Of a stretch of 64,000 nt of DNA, positions 29,608 through 42,873 are shown piece by piece. Both the position numbers and the translations under genes were made by a program. Below the pieces are notes generated by a model. It was not told where the DNA came from, made no database searches, and saw only the letters and a program-made list of their open reading frames with translations. Source of the DNA: Erythrobacter sp. (GTDB lineage: Bacteria; Pseudomonadota; Alphaproteobacteria; Sphingomonadales; Sphingomonadaceae); contig JAHEBH010000002.1 of the NCBI GenBank assembly GCA_024642335.1, positions 6,647-70,646 of the forward strand, written 5' to 3'. Numbering within the stretch: the first letter of the stretch is position 1; the number at the start of each line of letters is the position of its first letter.

Positions 29608-29913
29608 TCAGTTGCAGAAGCGGTCTACCTGGCTGTCAATCTCGTCGAGCTTGTCGGCATCGCGGTCCATTGTGCCATTCGCAACGCTCCGGTCCCATTG
29701 CTCCTGCGCCAGCCGCTGATAGGTTTCGCACTGCATCGCTGTGGCCTCCGCCTGGGCCTCAGCCACAGTCTCGTTGATGCTCTTGCCGTCAAGAGATGCC
29801 ATTTCCTGGTTCATGAGATCATCCGCATTGCGCGGAGCCGAAACAGCATAGGCGACCCAGGCAGCAATCACTATTGTGCCCGCAAGCCCGACAATACCCC
29901 TGATCACGCTCAT
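29608..29913 (-). CDS. Hypothetical membrane-anchored protein
   Basis: 101-aa ORF with one N-terminal hydrophobic helix and two Cys; family not recognised. Confidence 0.6.
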   Translation of the reverse strand: MSVIRGIVGLAGTIVIAAWVAYAVSAPRNADDLMNQEMASLDGKSINETVAEAQAEATAMQCETYQRLAQEQWDRSVANGTMDRDADKLDEIDSQVDRFCN

Positions 29914-29994: not shown

Positions 29995-31026
29995 TTAGTC
30001 CTGAACTGCCAATCCATGCTTCTTGATGCAATGGCGCAGCTGATCATAGGACAGGCCCAGCGACTTTGCCGTCTGGCGCTGGTTCCAGCGGTTGGCCCCT
30101 AAGGCATACTCTACGATGGCGCGTTCATGCGCATCGACCGCAACCCGCAGATCGTCGACATTCGAGAAGTCGCTTTCGACCGGAGCAGGATTCGCAACGG
30201 TATCCTTTGCGGACGCAGGGCGCGGTGCCTCCGGGACCGTGGCGATCGGCTTCCATGGCGAATCGAACGGGTCAAACACCGCATGCGCAATGGGCCGGGA
30301 CCAATCATCCCAACGATAGACCGCGCGTTCCACCACATTGCGCAATTCTCGCACATTGCCCGGCCAGGGATGGTTCTCGAGCGCCTCGGCAATGTGGGTG
30401 GCATAGCCGGGCCACTCCTCCCAGCCCAGTTCGGCAGCCATGCGCCGCCCGAAATAGTCCGCCAGAACCGCTATATCGCCTTCGCGCACGCGCAAGGGCG
30501 GCAGGGTAATCACCTCGAAACTCAGCCGGTCGAGCAAGTCGGCACGAAAGCGCCCTTCCTTGGCCAGTTTCGGCAAATTCTCGTTGGTCGCCGCGACGAT
30601 GCGAACATCGACGCGTGTAGGACGGGATGAGCCGATGCGCGTTACCTCGCCATATTCGACAGCGCGCAACAGGCGTTCCTGCGCGCCCATGGACAGCGTA
30701 CCCAGCTCATCGAGGAACAGCGTGCCCCTGTCCGCTTCCTCGAAACGACCTTCGCGCACTTTGGTGGCGCCGGTGAAAGCACCTGCTTCATGGCCGAACA
30801 GCTCGGCTTCGATCAGCGTTTCGGGCAGGGCGGCACAATTCATGATGACCAGCGGTTCCTCCCACCGGTCGGACAAGCGATGGAGGCGTTCTGCAATCAG
30901 TTCCTTGCCCGTTCCGCGCTCGCCGACCACCAGGACGGGGCGACGCATGGGCGCGGCGCGGCTGGCGCGTTCGACCGCATCGAGGAAGGCGCCCGACTGG
31001 CCGATGAACTGGTTCTCGCGCTCCAT
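29995..31026 (-). CDS. pspF: Sigma54-dependent activator PspF
   Basis: GERGTGKE, GAFTGA, LFLDE, DLLDRLS, WPGNVREL, C-terminal HTH; no N-terminal regulatory domain; divergent from pspA. Confidence 0.93.
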   Translation of the reverse strand: MERENQFIGQSGAFLDAVERASRAAPMRRPVLVVGERGTGKELIAERLHRLSDRWEEPLVIMNCAALPETLIEAELFGHEAGAFTGATKVREGRFEEADRGTLFLDELGTLSMGAQERLLRAVEYGEVTRIGSSRPTRVDVRIVAATNENLPKLAKEGRFRADLLDRLSFEVITLPPLRVREGDIAVLADYFGRRMAAELGWEEWPGYATHIAEALENHPWPGNVRELRNVVERAVYRWDDWSRPIAHAVFDPFDSPWKPIATVPEAPRPASAKDTVANPAPVESDFSNVDDLRVAVDAHERAIVEYALGANRWNQRQTAKSLGLSYDQLRHCIKKHGLAVQD

Positions 31027-31036
31027 GGCCAAGATA

Positions 31037-31071
31037 TAGTGAAAAACGCCAAGGTTTGGCAACAGTCACTA
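31037..31071. promoter_or_regulatory. Putative PspF upstream activating sequence
   Basis: Dyad TAGTGAAAAACGCCAA-ggt-TTGGCAACAGTCACTA, similar to the recalled enterobacterial psp UAS. Confidence 0.7.
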
Positions 31072-31126
31072 CGTGTGCAACGCAGGGTTATGCACAACAT
31101 GCTGGTTTTTCGTAGGAAATTGGATT

Positions 31127-31142
31127 TGGCACGCGCCTTGCA
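31127..31142 (+). promoter_or_regulatory. Sigma54 -24/-12 promoter of the psp operon
   Basis: TGGCAC-GCGCC-TTGCA, exact consensus spacing. Confidence 0.9.
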
Positions 31143-31329: not shown

Positions 31330-32156
31330 GCCGCGAGAACGAAAACCCCTTGACGCCGGTTGGGCTGAGCCGGAGCACGTCGGACTCCTCGCGGATAGAC
31401 CGCGAGATAGAACGGCTGCGTACGAGCCCCACCCCGACCAGCAATTCGCTTATTGCCGGAGGAGCCTGGATGGGCATTTTTTCGCGTACAAGAGACATCA
31501 TCGCCGCCAACTTCAACGAGCTGCTGGACCAGGCCGATGACCCCGCCAAGATGATCCGCATGATCATTCTGGAGATGGAGGAAACGCTGGTCGAAGTTCG
31601 AGCCAGCGCCGCCCGCACCATTGCTGACCAGAAGGAAATGCACCGTCACATGGTGAAGCTGGACAAGCTCCAGTCAGACTGGTCGGAGAAGGCCCAGCTT
31701 GCCTTGTCGAAGGATCGTGAAGACCTCGCCCGTGCCGCTCTGATGGAAAAGCGCAAGGCTGGCGACATGGCCGATCAGCTGAAACAGGAGATCACCGTGC
31801 TCGACGACGCGCTGCGCGCCTATGAGCAGGACATCGCCAAGCTGCAGCATCGCCTGCGCGAAGCCCGCAGCCGCCAGAGCCAGATCGCAGCACGGCTGGA
31901 AAGCGCGGAGAACCGCTACAAGCTGCGCAGCCTGATGACCAACGAGCGGGTGGACGATGCCCTGAGCCGCTTCGATCAGCTCGAGCGCCGCGTCGATTAT
32001 GCCGAAGGCCGCGCCGATGCACTGGGCATATCCGGCAACCCGCCCAGCCTGGCAGACGAGTTCGCCGCGCTGGAGGGCTCCGACAGGGTCAACGAGGAAC
32101 TCGAGGAAATGAAGCGCGCCCTGGGTTTGGGCAATGACGAGAAGAAGGAGGATTAA
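31326..32156 (+). CDS. pspA: Phage shock protein A (alternative start at 31470)
   Basis: MGIFSRTRDIIAANFNELLDQADDPAKMIRMII.EMEETLVEVR, LARAAL, long coiled coil. Confidence 0.93.
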   Translation: MSRENENPLTPVGLSRSTSDSSRIDREIERLRTSPTPTSNSLIAGGAWMGIFSRTRDIIAANFNELLDQADDPAKMIRMIILEMEETLVEVRASAARTIADQKEMHRHMVKLDKLQSDWSEKAQLALSKDREDLARAALMEKRKAGDMADQLKQEITVLDDALRAYEQDIAKLQHRLREARSRQSQIAARLESAENRYKLRSLMTNERVDDALSRFDQLERRVDYAEGRADALGISGNPPSLADEFAALEGSDRVNEELEEMKRALGLGNDEKKED

Positions 32157-32159
32157 CCC

Positions 32160-32456
32160 GTGGAAGAGATCATTATTTTGCCGATGATATTTGTCGGGCT
32201 TCCCTGGCTGATCCTGCACTATGTCACCAAATGGAAGACTGCCGCCGGCATCACCACTGACGATGAAGCGCTGCTGGAGGAACTCTACCAGCTGGCCCGG
32301 CGTCTGGACGAGCGGATGGACACGGTCGAACGGCTGGTCTCCTCCGACAATCCGGACTTCAAGACCGCGCGCATCATGCATGACAAGGAAATCGACAATA
32401 CGCCGCTGCATGAACTGGAGCAGCTGCTGGCCGAAAAGAAGGGAGCCCGCAAGTGA
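32160..32456 (+). CDS. pspB: Phage shock protein B
   Basis: TM IFVGLPWLILHY, then L..ARRLDERMDTVERLV. Confidence 0.88.
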   Translation: MEEIIILPMIFVGLPWLILHYVTKWKTAAGITTDDEALLEELYQLARRLDERMDTVERLVSSDNPDFKTARIMHDKEIDNTPLHELEQLLAEKKGARK

Positions 32457-32827
32457 ACTCGCCTCGTACCACACTCTATCGCGACAAGCAGAATGCGAAG
32501 ATGCTGGGCGTCTGCGCGGGCATTGCGGACTACACCGGCATCAATGCCTTCTGGGTCCGCCTTGCGGCCCTGATGCTGATCCCGATGACCGGCTTTGTCG
32601 TTCCGCTCTATTTCATCGCCGGTGTGCTTTTGAACAAGAAGCCTGCTGAGCTTTATGGCGATGAGCAGCAAGATAAATACTGGCAGGGCGTGCGCCAGTC
32701 CCCCAAGCGGACGACGCGCGAAATCCGTGCCCGCTTCCGCGACATCGACCGCCGTCTGGCCGGCGTGGAACACCACTATGTCACCAATAATCAGCGCCTC
32801 TCGGCCGAAATAGAGCGCCTGCGCTGA
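32453..32827 (+). CDS. pspC: Phage shock protein C
   Basis: LYRDKQNAKMLGVCAGIADYTG..WVRL, TM, C-terminal YVTNNQRLSAEIERLR. Confidence 0.9.
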   Translation: MNSPRTTLYRDKQNAKMLGVCAGIADYTGINAFWVRLAALMLIPMTGFVVPLYFIAGVLLNKKPAELYGDEQQDKYWQGVRQSPKRTTREIRARFRDIDRRLAGVEHHYVTNNQRLSAEIERLR

Positions 32828-32861: not shown

Positions 32862-33191
32862 ATGGGTGAGTTCATACCTATAATTGCGATCATCATGGGG
32901 TGCACAATCCCGATGGTGGCGATCTGGTCAAAGCACAAGGAAAGGGTCGCAGCGATGGACCGCGGCATCATCCTGGATGACAGGGGCAGGCCGGTCGGAG
33001 CTGCAAACAGCAACGCCGCAATTGAATCCGAGGTGAAGGAACTGCGCGAGCGCGTGAAAGTGCTCGAACGCATCGTTACCGACGGCGGATACAACCTCGC
33101 CAATGAGATCGAGGCGCTGCGCGACGCTCGTACAGATCACGATCAGGGCGCGGGCGTTCCGCTCAATGTTTCCAGCAGGGAGAGGGCGTGA
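32862..33191 (+). CDS. Psp-associated TM plus coiled-coil protein, paralogue 1
   Basis: N-terminal TM; LRERVKVLERIVTDGGYNLANEIEALR. Confidence 0.8.
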   Translation: MGEFIPIIAIIMGCTIPMVAIWSKHKERVAAMDRGIILDDRGRPVGAANSNAAIESEVKELRERVKVLERIVTDGGYNLANEIEALRDARTDHDQGAGVPLNVSSRERA

Positions 33192-33532
33192 TGGACCCGA
33201 CCCTTGCCATTATCCTCGATTACATTCCGCTGGTCATTGGTGGTGCCGTGGCCATCTCTCTCGCCGGTGTCTGGGCATCGGTTCACAACACCAAGCTCAA
33301 GATCAAGAACGGCTACCCGCTGGAAGGCATGTGGGGCCAGTCTCTCAAGCCGGATGTGTCGAGCGAAGGCATGGAGCGCGTAAAAATGCTGACGCAGGAG
33401 AATGCAGCGCTTCGTGCTGAGGTCTCGGCGATGAAAGAACGCATGGCCAATGTCGAACGCATCGTGACCGACAGCGGCTTCCAGCTGACACACCAGATCG
33501 ACCGGTTGCGGGACAGGGAAGAGGTGAACTGA
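33188..33532 (+). CDS. Psp-associated TM plus coiled-coil protein, paralogue 2
   Basis: N-terminal TM; MKERMANVERIVTDSGFQLTHQIDRLR; GTGA overlap with the previous gene. Confidence 0.8.
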   Translation: MMDPTLAIILDYIPLVIGGAVAISLAGVWASVHNTKLKIKNGYPLEGMWGQSLKPDVSSEGMERVKMLTQENAALRAEVSAMKERMANVERIVTDSGFQLTHQIDRLRDREEVN

Positions 33533-33831
33533 TGGATCTCGAGTTTGTATTCGGGCTGGTCACAGCAATCGCCATTGTCGCAATCGTGATGGGTACCATC
33601 GGCGGCATCGTGAAAAGCGCCATTCGCCTGAGGGAAAAAAGGCTGGAACTAAATGCCAAGCCGGCCCAGCCCGATGCCGCACCGCTGCTGGCCAAGGTCA
33701 ACCAGATGGAAGACCGTATCCGGGTGCTGGAAAGCATCGCCAGCGATAGCGGCGTCAGGTTGGCGCATGAAATCGAGTCCCTGCGTTTGACGGCCAATGT
33801 GCCGCAAAAGGGGAAGGAGGAAGTGGAGTGA
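33532..33831 (+). CDS. Psp-associated TM plus coiled-coil protein, paralogue 3
   Basis: N-terminal TM; MEDRIRVLESIASDSGVRLAHEIESLR. Confidence 0.8.
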   Translation: MDLEFVFGLVTAIAIVAIVMGTIGGIVKSAIRLREKRLELNAKPAQPDAAPLLAKVNQMEDRIRVLESIASDSGVRLAHEIESLRLTANVPQKGKEEVE

Positions 33832-34085
33832 GTATCGGTACTGCCTTGGTCGTTATCGTGGCGATCATGGTACTGGGAAGCGTCTTTCGCAGTCGTCACC
33901 ATGCCTCGCTGGGTATGGGAACCGACCAGCACGGCAATCCCGTCGGATCGACGCAACGTGAACGTGAACTTGAAGCAGAGATAGCTGAACTGCGCGATCG
34001 CGTGCATGTCCTTGAACGCATCGCCACCGAAGAAACTGACACAAAGCGCCTGTCGGCCGAAATCGACAAGCTGCGCGACGAATAG
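33828..34085 (+). CDS. Psp-associated TM plus coiled-coil protein, paralogue 4
   Basis: N-terminal TM; LRDRVHVLERIATEETDTKRLSAEIDKLR. Confidence 0.8.
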   Translation: MSIGTALVVIVAIMVLGSVFRSRHHASLGMGTDQHGNPVGSTQRERELEAEIAELRDRVHVLERIATEETDTKRLSAEIDKLRDE

Positions 34086-34095
34086 GGGAAAGGGT

Positions 34096-34335
34096 ATGTT
34101 GAGCGTAGAATTGCTGATTGCCGCCTGTTCGCTGCTGGGCCTGATGATACTGGCCGCGGCAGTCCTGAAGGGATGGCAGGGTTGGCTGGAACTCAAGGAA
34201 CGCGAACTGCAGCTGCGAGGCGGCCCGATGGAAATCGAAGGCGGCGCGCGCGAAGGTGCGGCACGGATCGAGATTTCCGACCTCAAGGAACGCATCCGCA
34301 AGCTGGAAGCAATCGCAAGCGGGGTGGACCTCTAG
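34096..34335 (+). CDS. Psp-associated TM plus coiled-coil protein, paralogue 5
   Basis: N-terminal TM; LKERIRKLEAIASGVDL, lacking the terminal EI..LR helix. Confidence 0.78.
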   Translation: MLSVELLIAACSLLGLMILAAAVLKGWQGWLELKERELQLRGGPMEIEGGAREGAARIEISDLKERIRKLEAIASGVDL

Positions 34336-39394: not shown

Positions 39395-40012
39395 ATGTGC
39401 AACCTTTACCGCATGAAACAGAGTCGGACCGAGGTGGCGGATTTCTTTTCGTCCATTGCACAAGACTTACGTGTCGCTCCGGGCAACGACCCTGCCGAAA
39501 TCTATCCCGGCTATCCCGGCCTCGTGCTGGCTGAAGGACAGGTCCAGCAGATGGCATGGGGGTTCCCGCTTGCCCTCAAGGGAACGAGGGGTCAGCCGCT
39601 GAAGCCCAAGCCGGTCAACAATGCGCGCTCGGACAAGCTGGGCAGCCCCTTCTGGTCTGCCAGCTTCCGGGATCGGCGTTGCCTTGTGCCGGTATCCGAA
39701 TTTGCCGAGGCGCGTGGAGCCAAGGGCGCGAAGACGCGGACGTGGTTCTCGCTTCCCGATACGCCCCTCATGGCTGTGGCCGGTTTCTGGCGCGATACCG
39801 AAGAGTGGGGACCAGCCTTCACCATGGTCATGACCGATGCAAATGACGCTGTCCGGCCATTGCATGACCGCATGCCGTCGATCCTCGCTCCCGATGACTG
39901 GCAAACCTATCTCGGCCTTGATCCGCAAGCAGCGTTCGAGATCTGCCGGCCCTATGCCGGAGCGATGACGGTCTCGCACACAGACACGCCCTGGCCGGGC
40001 CGTCGCGGGTGA
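39395..40012 (+). CDS. SOS response-associated peptidase (SRAP/YedK family)
   Basis: N-terminal MCNLY, WGFP, NNARSD, RRCLVP...F.E, HDRMP. Confidence 0.92.
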   Translation: MCNLYRMKQSRTEVADFFSSIAQDLRVAPGNDPAEIYPGYPGLVLAEGQVQQMAWGFPLALKGTRGQPLKPKPVNNARSDKLGSPFWSASFRDRRCLVPVSEFAEARGAKGAKTRTWFSLPDTPLMAVAGFWRDTEEWGPAFTMVMTDANDAVRPLHDRMPSILAPDDWQTYLGLDPQAAFEICRPYAGAMTVSHTDTPWPGRRG

Positions 40013-40042
40013 CCGGATTGTCGGGAAGGCCTGTTCTTCGGG

Positions 40043-40089
40043 GAGGCGGGGCCGGGAGACTCCAGGGGACCCAGGATCGGCCCCGCCTC
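40043..40089 (-). other. Strong GC hairpin, candidate sigma54-dependent small RNA
   Basis: 12-bp perfect inverted repeat GAGGCGGGGCCG...CGGCCCCGCCTC around a 23-nt interior; no U-tract on either strand. Confidence 0.5.
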
Positions 40090-40120
40090 ATTCGAAGACT
40101 ACAGGGTACACACAATACTT

Positions 40121-40161
40121 TGCACAGCCCGTGCCAGTTTTGCGCATTCGCGGATTTCTGC
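40121..40161 (-). promoter_or_regulatory. Putative sigma54 promoter with conserved upstream 12-mer
   Basis: Minus strand GCAGAAATCCGC-N13-TGGCAC-GGGCT-GTGCA; same layout as 41619-41659. Confidence 0.6.
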
Positions 40162-40323
40162 GCAACACGATGGTTAAGGTGGCCTTACTGGCAGGCAGGA
40201 TTGTAAAAAAAGCCGACGTTTTTCGTTGTTTTCCGCACGCCCATCCGGGTACGCGCGCAGCAGGGACAGCTTGCTGTCCATCTGGCGAGGACGAAGGCGC
40301 GGATGCGCCTTCGCAAACAAGAT

Positions 40324-40400
40324 TGGCGCGCCCGGCAGGACTCGAACCTGCAACTCCAAGCTTAGAAGGCTCGTGCTCTATCCAGTTGAACTACGGGCGC
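40324..40400 (-). tRNA. tRNA-Arg (anticodon UCU)
   Basis: GCGCCCGTAGTTCAACTGGATAGAGC-A-CGAGC-CTTCTAA-GCTTG...GGTTCGAGTCC...CCA; 77 nt. Confidence 0.97.
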
Positions 40401-40459
40401 GTCGGGTCCGGTCCATAGCGGGCTTTGCGGCTATGGCAAATCAAGATAGGTTCGCTTTC

Positions 40460-41197
40460 ATGGATAGAAAGCCGCAACGTATCGAGGGGCACGAAGGCGG
40501 ACGCCGCCACTTCCGCTATTTCGATTATGTCATGGTGGCCTTCGTCACCATCCTCCTGCTGTCCAACGTGATCGGGGCCGGCAAAGTCTCCTTTGTCGAA
40601 CTGCCTGTGCTGGGCATTTGGGAATTTGGCGCAGGTATCCTGTTCTTCCCCGTTTCCTATGTGATCGGAGATATACTGACCGAAGTGTATGGATACGCCC
40701 ATGCGCGGCGCTGCATCTGGGCCGGGTTTATCGCGCTCGTCTTCATGGCCTTCATGGCTATGGTAGTGGTCGCCCTGCCCCCGGCGGCAAACTGGGGCGG
40801 GCAGGAAGCTTACGAGCAGGTTTTCGGGCAGGTGCCGCGTATCGTGCTGGCGTCGATCATTGCCTTCTGGGCAGGCGAGTTCGTGAATTCCTACGTCATG
40901 GCGCGGATGAAGGTCTGGACGAAAGGCAGGTTGCTGTGGACGCGGACCATCGGTTCGACCGTGGTCGGCCAAGGCGTGGACAGCGCCTTGTTCTATCCGA
41001 TCGCCTTTCTGGGAGCCTCGGGCTGGAGCACCGATCTGGTCATAACCGTGGCGCTCACCCAATGGCTGCTGAAGACGGGCTGGGAGGTGGTCCTCACGCC
41101 CGTCACCTACAAGGCTGTGTCTTTCCTCAAACGGCGCGAAGGCGTGGAAGTCTTCGATACGGACACCGACTTTTCTCCCTTCGCAAAGTCCTTGTAG
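40460..41197 (+). CDS. Queuosine precursor transporter (YhhQ/Vut_1)
   Basis: LLSNVIGAGK, FFPVSYVIGDILTEVYG, RIVLASIIAF..GEFVNS, RTIGSTVVGQGVDS; alternative start at 40433. Confidence 0.9.
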   Translation: MDRKPQRIEGHEGGRRHFRYFDYVMVAFVTILLLSNVIGAGKVSFVELPVLGIWEFGAGILFFPVSYVIGDILTEVYGYAHARRCIWAGFIALVFMAFMAMVVVALPPAANWGGQEAYEQVFGQVPRIVLASIIAFWAGEFVNSYVMARMKVWTKGRLLWTRTIGSTVVGQGVDSALFYPIAFLGASGWSTDLVITVALTQWLLKTGWEVVLTPVTYKAVSFLKRREGVEVFDTDTDFSPFAKSL

Positions 41198-41225
41198 GTT
41201 GAAGCCCGGTTGGGGAAGTGGTGGA

Positions 41226-41438
41226 TCACTCCACCACTGCCCACATTGCGAGATAGATCAGGATAAAGCTGCCGAAACCGGCAATGGCACCGATGCCGAA
41301 TACCAGGCGCACGATCAGCGGATCGATCCCGAAGTAATTGGCAAGGCCCGAACAGACGCCACCGATTTTGGCATTGCTCTTGTCGAGGTGGAGCTTCCTG
41401 GGCGGTCCACCCGTTGGTTGGGGGCTGAGCTGGCTCAT
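41226..41438 (-). CDS. Stand-alone PspC domain protein
   Basis: LHLDKSNAKIGGVCSGLANYFGIDPLIVRL plus TM only; no C-terminal coiled coil. Confidence 0.88.
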   Translation of the reverse strand: MSQLSPQPTGGPPRKLHLDKSNAKIGGVCSGLANYFGIDPLIVRLVFGIGAIAGFGSFILIYLAMWAVVE

Positions 41439-41563
41439 GCGACCAGCACCGTGGCAGCCTGGACCTGCGGGATGGCAAAATAGCTCACCATGATGGCCAT
41501 GGACATGGCAACGGCGCCGAAAGCGGCCATGGCACGGTGGAGAACATTGGTTTCTTCGGACAT
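41435..41563 (-). CDS. 42-aa hydrophobic protein
   Basis: Not in the ORF track. GAGGGAG RBS; MSEETNVLHRAMAAFGAVAMSMAIMVSYFAIPQVQAATVLVA; ATGA overlap with the PspC-domain gene. Confidence 0.75.
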   Translation of the reverse strand: MSEETNVLHRAMAAFGAVAMSMAIMVSYFAIPQVQAATVLVA

Positions 41564-41618
41564 TTCTTAACTCCCTCTAGCTTGGATCGAACAATCATTC
41601 GCTCGATACCACAACCAT

Positions 41619-41659
41619 TGCAGAGGGTGTGCCAGTTTAAGAAAATGGCGGATTTCTGC
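41619..41659 (-). promoter_or_regulatory. Putative sigma54 promoter with conserved upstream 12-mer
   Basis: Minus strand GCAGAAATCCGC-N13-TGGCAC-ACCCT-CTGCA. Confidence 0.7.
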
Positions 41660-41693
41660 CATTCTTGTTCAGGATAACGAAAGGTTCCACAAA

Positions 41694-41724
41694 TAGTGAT
41701 ACTGAACATTGGTATTTTTCACCA
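41694..41724. promoter_or_regulatory. PspF-UAS-like sites
   Basis: Minus strand TGGTGAAAAATACCAA is 13/16 identical to the site at 31037, followed by a ...TCACTA half-site. Confidence 0.6.
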
Positions 41725-41787
41725 ATATTTAGAAAGTTGATTTTCATGGCTTCAAACGTGCCGCTCGCCTAGTCATCATATCGCACC

Positions 41788-42873
41788 ATGGCGCTCGACC
41801 GGATCACCCTTTCCACATTCCGCAACCATGCCGATACGCGGCTTGACGGCACTGCGCATTTCAACCTGCTTGTCGGGGAAAATGGCGCGGGCAAGACCAA
41901 CGTGCTCGAGGCGCTCTCGCTCTTTGCGCCAGGACGGGGCCTGCGACGCGCGGCATTGGGCGAGATGGCGGGACAGGCAGGCGAAGGCAGCTTTGCGGCA
42001 AGTGCGCAGCTCGATCCGGGTGATGGCTCTTCCCCGGTCAGGATAGGCACGGGCACCATGCCCGAACGGCTTGGCCGCCGCATCGTCCAGATCAACGGTG
42101 CGGAAAGCAGCGCGCTGGAACTGGGTGAATGGCTCGCTGTCGGCTGGCTTACACCAACCATGGACCGCATCTTCAATGACAGCGCCTCTGCACGGCGGCG
42201 TTATCTTGACCGGTTGACGGTTGCCCTGGACCCAGGCCACGCGCGGCATGCCTCGCGATACGAGGCTGCCCTGAGGGAGAGAAACAGGCTGCTTTCCGAC
42301 CCCGCAGACCCCGACCAGACGTGGCTCGATTCCATCGAAGCGCAGCTTGCCGAAGCTGGCGCCTTGCTCACCATGGGTCGTGCTGCACTCGTGAACCGCC
42401 TGTCGTCCGAGCTGGCGCACCTGTCTCCGCAGCCCTTCGCCCTGCCGCGCCTCACCTACCAGCCAGGCGGACCGGCATCACAGGCAGAACTGGCGGCCGA
42501 ACTTGCGCGCCACCGCCGCCGCGACCGGGCGGCGCAACGCACGCTGACCGGGCCGCATCGCGATGAGCTGGATGTCGTTTTGGATGGCAAGGAGGTGCCT
42601 GCAGCGCAGTGTTCCACTGGCGAACAGAAGGCGATGCTGATCGCGATCACGCTTGCCCATGCCGGACTTGCGGCAGGAGGCAGACCCAGCCTGTTGCTGC
42701 TCGATGAAGTCGCTGCCCATCTCGATCCCATTCGCCGTGCGGCGCTGTTCGAGCGGCTGCGTGAAGGCGGCGCACAAGTGTGGCTGACGGGAACCGAGAG
42801 CGCCCCGTTCGACGATATCGCCAAGGAGGCCGCCGTGTGGCGCGTCTCCGGCGGCGCGGTGGAGCGACTTTAG
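41788..42873 (+). CDS. recF: DNA replication and repair protein RecF
   Basis: FRNH, GENGAGKTNVLEALS, RRRYLDR, GPHRD, CSTGEQK, LLLDEVAAHLD. Confidence 0.97.
   Translation: MALDRITLSTFRNHADTRLDGTAHFNLLVGENGAGKTNVLEALSLFAPGRGLRRAALGEMAGQAGEGSFAASAQLDPGDGSSPVRIGTGTMPERLGRRIVQINGAESSALELGEWLAVGWLTPTMDRIFNDSASARRRYLDRLTVALDPGHARHASRYEAALRERNRLLSDPADPDQTWLDSIEAQLAEAGALLTMGRAALVNRLSSELAHLSPQPFALPRLTYQPGGPASQAELAAELARHRRRDRAAQRTLTGPHRDELDVVLDGKEVPAAQCSTGEQKAMLIAITLAHAGLAAGGRPSLLLLDEVAAHLDPIRRAALFERLREGGAQVWLTGTESAPFDDIAKEAAVWRVSGGAVERL

Follow-up and report, generated by a model that had tools for sequence, protein, structure and literature searches.

The two-gene operon located beside recF in the window, i.e. 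the whole stretch of 64,000 nucleotides of Erythrobacter sp. DNA that was analysed, probably belongs to the PspF (phage-shock) regulon as its second transcription unit. The assignment, made at the level of sequence, is based on a palindrome and a palindrome-to-promoter offset shared with the psp operon, on the top genome-wide ranks of these elements, on their conservation and that of the two ORFs across genera, on the co-occurrence with pspF, on the lack of a sigma-70 consensus and on the precedent of pspG. A pspG-like second unit had been proposed in a first-pass annotation of the same DNA, and it is retained here on account of the identical palindrome type and offset, of the uniqueness of the two sites in the genome and of their conservation in the family. 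The unit is composed of the following elements, listed with the type of evidence used:

41725..41709, minus strand: upstream activating sequence (UAS), putative PspF site, 17-bp palindrome TTGGTGAAAAATACCAA (matrix rank, conservation)
41672..41643, minus strand: promoter-proximal block CTGAACAAGAATGGCAGAAATCCGCCATTTT between the UAS and the -24 box (conserved columns)
41634..41619, minus strand: sigma-54 -24/-12 promoter TGGCACACCCTCTGCA (consensus and matrix)
41571..41577, minus strand: Shine-Dalgarno sequence GAGGGAG, 7 nt 5' of the ATG of the small ORF (sequence reading)
41563..41435, minus strand: ORF of a 42-aa small membrane protein, unannotated family (conservation, codon pattern)
41438..41226, minus strand: 70-aa PspC-domain-only protein (PF04024 match)
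41218..41237, minus strand: 9-bp hairpin overlapping the stop codon of the 70-aa ORF, without U-tract (folding)

The two ORFs overlap by ATGA, in which the start codon of the 70-aa ORF and the TGA stop codon of the 42-aa ORF are combined. The recF gene starts at 41788 on the plus strand, divergent from the unit, and the gene of a Vut_1 transporter converges on it from the opposite side; the 70-aa gene therefore has recF and the transporter as neighbours and is not part of the pspA-pspB-pspC operon. The 61-nt stretch around the hairpin folds with an MFE of -24.1 kcal/mol (z -2.6). This hairpin was not called by a simple terminator scan and is a possible weak terminator before the convergent Vut_1 gene. 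No sigma-70 consensus promoter was found in the intergenic region of the unit. An Rfam scan of positions 39800-41900 returned only a tRNA-Arg above family threshold, together with one sub-threshold match antisense to this tRNA-Arg.

The psp operon present in the same window was used as the reference. Its promoter (31127) lies 10.5 kb from the unit, in agreement with the 10 kb initially estimated, and its relevant features are:

29995..31026, minus strand: pspF, sensor-less sigma-54 activator with a Fis-type HTH (TIGR02974 467.5 bits, cut-off 443.55)
31036..31052, plus strand: psp operon UAS ATAGTGAAAAACGCCAA, followed by an extra half-site TTGGCAA (promoter comparison)
31127..31142, plus strand: psp operon sigma-54 promoter TGGCACGCGCCTTGCA (perfect box)
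31470-32827, plus strand: pspA-pspB-pspC (family matches)
32453-32827, plus strand: full-length pspC, 124 aa (TIGR02978 117 bits, cut-off 104)

The psp UAS is situated 10 nt upstream of the start codon of pspF, a gene divergent from the sigma-54 box at 31127-31142. This box is followed in the 3' direction, in that order, by a leader ORF of 50/56 aa, pspA, pspB, pspC and five paralogues extending to 34335. The genome also encodes RpoN (TIGR02395 410 bits, above cut-off) and, besides PspF, four other enhancer-binding proteins including NtrC and NtrX types. Further observations were made in this region. The hydrophobic leader ORF (31159/31177-31329, plus strand, 50-56 aa), located between the sigma-54 promoter and pspA and displaying the pattern MFDxxFFxSKxGxAALVSxAAM...ELA, is conserved in at least 22 genomes of the genus and has no family match. 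The five genes found 3' of pspC (32862-34335, plus strand) are tandem paralogues encoding single-helix coiled-coil proteins. A 101-aa ORF with an N-terminal hydrophobic helix (29608-29913, minus strand), located between rimP and pspF, has no family match either, and parts of it are kept in relatives where the psp operon is deleted.

The enhancers of the two promoters were compared directly. The 16-mer TGGTGAAAAATACCAA (41724..41709) and its counterpart TAGTGAAAAACGCCAA from the pspF-pspA region (31037..31052) are identical at 13 of 16 positions, as had been noticed in the first pass, and this match is part of the 17-bp palindrome. The distances then reported, about 60 and 55 nt, are erroneous: the spacing from the first base of the palindrome to the T of TGGCAC is 91 nt at both promoters (31036 to 31127 for the psp operon, 41725 to 41634 for the recF-side unit), with a gap of 74 nt. 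The box TGGCACACCCTCTGCA, located 55 nt 5' of the ATG of the 42-aa ORF, displays a single mismatch to TGGCAC-N5-TTGC. Position matrices were built from other genomes only and used to scan the whole 2.66-Mb genome on both strands, i.e. 5.3 million positions. The UAS at 41725..41709 is the best UAS match of the genome (24.1 bits). Among the sigma-54 boxes, that of the psp operon ranks first (26.1 bits) and that of the recF-side unit second (25.5 bits), the third scoring 20.8 bits, so that the box seen before the 42-aa ORF in the first pass is firmly retained. The genome-wide search for a UAS combined with a -24/-12 box, which had been put forward as a check, retrieved the psp operon and the recF-side unit only, and no third site was found in this genome with the UAS in either orientation. 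The common palindrome and offset, the uniqueness of the two pairs, the top ranks given by independent matrices and the presence of both pspF and rpoN all argue for a second PspF unit.

The same conclusion is suggested by relatives. Within the genus, promoters of the psp operon (27 genomes) and of loci orthologous to the recF-side unit (24 genomes) were cut in register on TGGCAC. A core xTxGxGAAAxxTCCCAA occupies the same columns in both consensuses, covering 22 recF-side and 25 psp promoters (47), while the intergenic columns around it are unconserved. An extra half-site TTGGCAA is found just 3' of the UAS in the psp set, and the recF-side unit carries a single palindrome. When a strict UAS-gap-box pattern was searched in 31 genomes of the genus, 11 matches were obtained, ten at the recF-side locus and one at a psp operon, with none elsewhere and none for the reversed control. 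A candidate PspF enhancer is defined for the group as TTGGnGAAAnnTCCCAA, placed 91 nt before TGGCAC. A second block common to both promoters at 13 of 16 positions (TCACTAnnTGTGnAAC, at -61 and -65) lacks conservation among relatives and was discarded as probably due to chance.

The block found between the UAS and the box (41672..41643) consists of strongly conserved columns in the 22 orthologous promoters. Its core GCAGAAATCCGC also occurs 13 nt upstream of an additional sigma-54 box of the window (40136) and, in a related form, upstream of the psp promoters of relatives; the block is therefore not specific to the recF-side unit. It may be a bending or IHF-type element. The PspF promoters of E. 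coli possess an IHF site between enhancer and promoter; judged by eye, the block is a poor fit to the E. coli IHF consensus. A G(C/G)(A/G)GAAATC(C/T)GC-like block was observed about 13-25 nt upstream of several sigma-54 boxes (41643-41672 and 40148-40160 in the window, and near position 2838 of C46 of the same genome, all on the minus strand) and of the psp promoters of relatives, and it looks like a general sigma-54 promoter-proximal element of the group that is not PspF-specific. The additional box itself (TGGCACGGGCTGTGCA, 40121-40136, minus strand) is the sixth-best of the genome and is preceded by GCAGAAATCCGC with exactly the 13-nt spacing of the recF-side promoter. The region 3' of it (40040-40120) contains a GC-rich hairpin but no ORF. 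At least nine relatives conserve the box together with AACCATCGT on its upstream side and GTACCC...GTCTTCGA on its downstream side; neither a PspF-type UAS above threshold nor an Rfam family was detected at this site, which may drive the synthesis of a sigma-54-dependent small RNA.

The product of the second gene matches the PspC family PF04024 over residues 14-69 (E 2.3e-19, 69.4 bits, cut-off 25). With TIGR02978 it reaches 51.1 bits, below the cut-off of 104, and covers model positions 2-58 of 121 only. The first-pass description of a 42-aa ORF coupled to a protein of 70 aa that contains only the PspC N-terminal domain and a TM helix thus agrees with the ATGA overlap, with the PF04024 match and with the alignment to half of TIGR02978. 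Identity to the N-terminus of the operon PspC amounts to 50% over 36 residues. The AlphaFold model, computed with 35 homologues, predicts a disordered N-terminal tail, a short helix (23-36) and a TM helix (40-69) with a pLDDT of 85-88, and it places the invariant Arg44 at the N-terminal end of the TM helix, just past the inter-helix loop. The PspC domain, the short helix, the conserved Arg and the TM helix are laid out as in the operon PspC; the 70-aa protein differs in that it stops after the TM helix, without the cytoplasmic C-terminus of about 55 residues, and in that its gene is not located by pspA and pspB. It had been proposed that PspC function is split in this organism, the N-terminal domain being encoded here and C-domain-like proteins in the operon, with combinatorial complexes as a result. 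This idea is unsupported, since a full-length PspC of 124 aa, scoring 117 bits with TIGR02978, is kept in the operon. The five paralogues, which were to supply the C-terminal domain, show only a weak resemblance to the PspC C-terminus (TIGR02978 E 0.0014-0.04), their shared C-terminal motif gives hhalign probabilities of 20% against the PspC C-terminus and 5% against PspB, and no similarity to the PspC C-terminus was detected using BLASTP. With a full-length PspC present in the operon, the 70-aa protein is best read as a PspC domain alone, an extra truncated paralogue and not half of a split gene.

The 42-aa protein comprises a short polar N-terminus, one hydrophobic helix and a tail ending in LA or VA. 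Its ORF is kept in all same-genus loci with its frame, its length and a recognisable sequence, is duplicated in tandem in many genomes, and shows differences of 0.31/0.18/0.46 per codon position. The conserved frame and length, the codon-position pattern, the strong ribosome binding site and the coupling to the next gene indicate that the small ORF is a gene. The protein belongs to no Pfam or NCBIfam family, a word index returned only the protein itself, and four matches were found among 1.84 billion representative proteins. Several candidate relationships were rejected. Both the 42-aa ORF and the psp leader ORF are conserved and end in LA, but the hhalign probability is 0.2% and the analogy is positional only. 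Homology of the 42-aa protein to PspB was rejected upon an hhalign probability of 0.1% against the PspB alignment of the genus and the lack of a Pfam or NCBIfam match. Homology to PspG was likewise discarded, as PspC was the sole family retrieved for the 70-aa protein in a Pfam scan extended to E 0.1 and the 42-aa protein had no match at all; the likeness to PspG is limited to function and position.

An orthologue of the short pspC is present in 24 of 24 same-genus genomes, and matches (E <= 1e-12) were obtained in 31 of 80 other sampled genera of the family. Two of these 31 adjoin pspF and probably represent the operon's own pspC. Source names of homologues include Aurantiacibacter, Altererythrobacter and Croceibacterium. 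Of 25 same-genus loci, 21 carry the conserved sequence TGGCAC-N5-CTGCA; in other genera, at least 18 of 29 loci display a TGGCAC-N5-(C/G)TGCA box with a UAS-like site about 90 nt upstream, and small ORFs of about 40 aa are found in most of the 29. In 51 of 54 loci the unit and recF are arranged divergently, whereas the distance to pspF can reach megabases; the 10 kb observed here are therefore incidental. All 31 genera with a short pspC possess pspF, and none of the seven pspF-less genera has a short pspC; this co-occurrence is statistically weak, the p of about 0.03 being uncorrected for the shared ancestry that makes the genera non-independent. The conservation of UAS, box and ORFs across genera, the co-occurrence with pspF and the missing sigma-70 consensus are in favor of a PspF-dependent unit.

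The distribution also gives rise to the alternative that survives best, although it is improbable: the unit could be PspF-independent and respond to another enhancer-binding protein, for instance of the NtrC or NtrX type, or to another factor that binds the palindrome and also acts at psp. Three relatives (G001, G008 and G011) have neither PspA nor PspF. The rimP and sufE genes, which flank the 4.4-kb psp operon in the present genome, are only 520-835 bp apart in these three, and the corresponding regions (L069, L070 and L071, respectively) were compared. The remnant in G008 consists of the fifth paralogue only, which is intact, and that of G011 of a truncated 101-aa ORF joined to a fragment of the fifth paralogue with a TAA stop; in G001, the 3' end of pspF is followed by an assembly gap of N's and the case is ambiguous. 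The junctions of G008 and G011 are not derivable from each other, from which we conclude that the two deletions were in all appearance independent. In a RecF tree, the three genomes are placed beside relatives with psp and the losses therefore look recent; in these small-genome relatives they may indeed be so. At the recF-side locus, G008 and G011 nevertheless retain the UAS, the box and both ORFs intact, and G001 retains both ORFs, an N gap covering its promoter region. The retention of the unit without pspF is compatible with a recent loss and is at the same time the best argument for another activator, or for a PspF-independent use of the proteins. The best 'PspF-like' match in G008 was rejected as a PspF: this regulator of 571 aa has an extended N-terminal region, which we take to be of the XylR/DmpR type.

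Another activator would be available among the four other enhancer-binding proteins of the genome, and the proximal GCAGAAATCC block is shared with the additional sigma-54 promoter that has no UAS. This alternative is opposed by the restriction of palindrome plus box to the psp operon and the recF-side unit, by the apparently recent and independent losses of pspF, and by the absence of the unit from all seven pspF-less genera. A further argument against it is that the psp palindrome immediately precedes the pspF start, where a site for PspF autoregulation is classically located.

It is very unlikely that the palindrome serves recF as an operator or promoter element, resembles the psp UAS by coincidence and leaves the box to rely on another distant enhancer. 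The divergent arrangement with recF in 51 of 54 loci and the location of the palindrome 63-79 nt upstream of the recF ATG would fit such a role, but the palindrome keeps a constant 91-nt offset to the box and lies at variable distances from recF in different genomes, the same motif occurs with the same offset at psp operons with no recF nearby, and the locus L077, devoid of recF, still carries a UAS-like site and a box. The chance that box and 13/16 match are functionless and that the 42-aa ORF is no gene is negligible: one-mismatch boxes are common (11 in the window against 6.9 expected) and a lone 13/16 match carries little weight in AT-rich intergenic DNA, but the elements rank first (UAS) and second (box) genome-wide with independent matrices, dozens of genomes conserve them while the flanking intergenic bases diverge, and the small ORF displays coding-type substitutions and tandem duplication.

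For the second PspF unit, we infer PspF binding, induction by stress and the functions of the proteins, and the mechanism can be briefly summarized as follows. PspF, encoded 10 kb away, would bind the 17-bp palindrome, the centre of which lies about 109 bp 5' of the expected start. Membrane stress would free PspF from PspA and allow it to loop to the sigma-54 polymerase at -24/-12, and DNA bending by the conserved proximal block may help this looping. Opening of the promoter would then switch on the unit in parallel with the psp operon, and the transcript would direct the translationally coupled synthesis of a 42-aa membrane peptide with one helix and of a membrane-embedded PspC domain of 70 aa. 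In full-length PspC, the cytoplasmic C-terminal part handles PspA and PspB. The short PspC is devoid of this part and is therefore unlikely to capture PspA; the peptide and the short PspC, like PspG in enterobacteria, most likely have a role within the membrane once induced, either as effectors or by modulating PspB/PspC, and do not serve as a PspA-capturing sensor. A more specific proposal, which is only a tentative and rather unlikely one, is that both proteins form a membrane-only mini PspB/PspC-like pair that does not depend on PspA. This pair would seal or stabilise the membrane under stress, or would titrate full-length PspB/PspC as a feedback brake, and it would stay useful and expressed after loss of psp and pspF, as in the two relatives with these deletions. 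If true, the pair would establish a new family of envelope-stress microproteins and give the bare PspC domain a function that does not require PspA.

The closest known counterpart is pspG. In E. coli, PspF activates only pspA, with two UAS, and the unlinked pspG, with one UAS (PMC3709507, PMC3467454), and pspG is an unlinked PspF-dependent gene in both E. coli and Yersinia (PMC3041696, PMC3467454, PMC3709507). Its membership of the PspF regulon in Escherichia coli and Yersinia enterocolitica is attributed to Lloyd et al. 2004 and Green and Darwin 2004, as cited in PMC3467454 and PMC3709507. The recF-side unit resembles pspG in its separation from pspF-pspA, its sigma-54 promoter with a single UAS, its small inner-membrane products and its place in a two-promoter regulon, where the psp promoter has more UAS sites than the remote unit (two versus one in E. 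coli, an extra half-site here). It differs in that there is no sequence kinship, that the payload consists of two genes, a microprotein and a truncated PspC paralogue, and that the unit is alphaproteobacterial (Sphingomonadaceae/Erythrobacteraceae) and fixed beside recF, its PspF dependence being deduced.

The arrangement is also reminiscent of PspB-PspC, the gene of a small single-helix membrane protein being placed just before, and overlapping, that of a PspC-domain protein; the 42-aa family, in contrast to PspB, has no cytoplasmic helical domain and no detectable similarity to it. PspC dimerises and needs a small partner for its stability, and in Yersinia it is toxic and degraded without its partner PspB (PMC3467454), which makes a dedicated small partner plausible for the short PspC. 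Stand-alone 'PspC domain-containing proteins' are described as pan-bacterial by Ravi et al. 2024 (PMC11237479), and the 70-aa protein is likewise a short PspC-domain-only protein encoded away from pspA, and public records of its family carry this name. The partners reported for such proteins in the survey passages are PadR/HAAS, two-component or Toastrack proteins, as opposed to the 42-aa peptide found here; the passages on stand-alone pspC retrieved from PMC11237479 mention neither a PspF UAS with a sigma-54 promoter nor a coupled 40-aa peptide. Literature searches retrieved no published description of the recF-side unit.

The present unit is an incremental extension of a well-known system and not a new system. 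The enterobacterial Psp response has a tiny output, limited to the two promoters of pspA and pspG. The recF-side unit suggests that sphingomonad-type Alphaproteobacteria evolved the same two-promoter logic, the second unit being a different one. A conserved and unannotated family of membrane proteins of about 40 residues is exposed in this way, and a natural domain-only PspC could help to separate the membrane function of PspC from PspA signalling.
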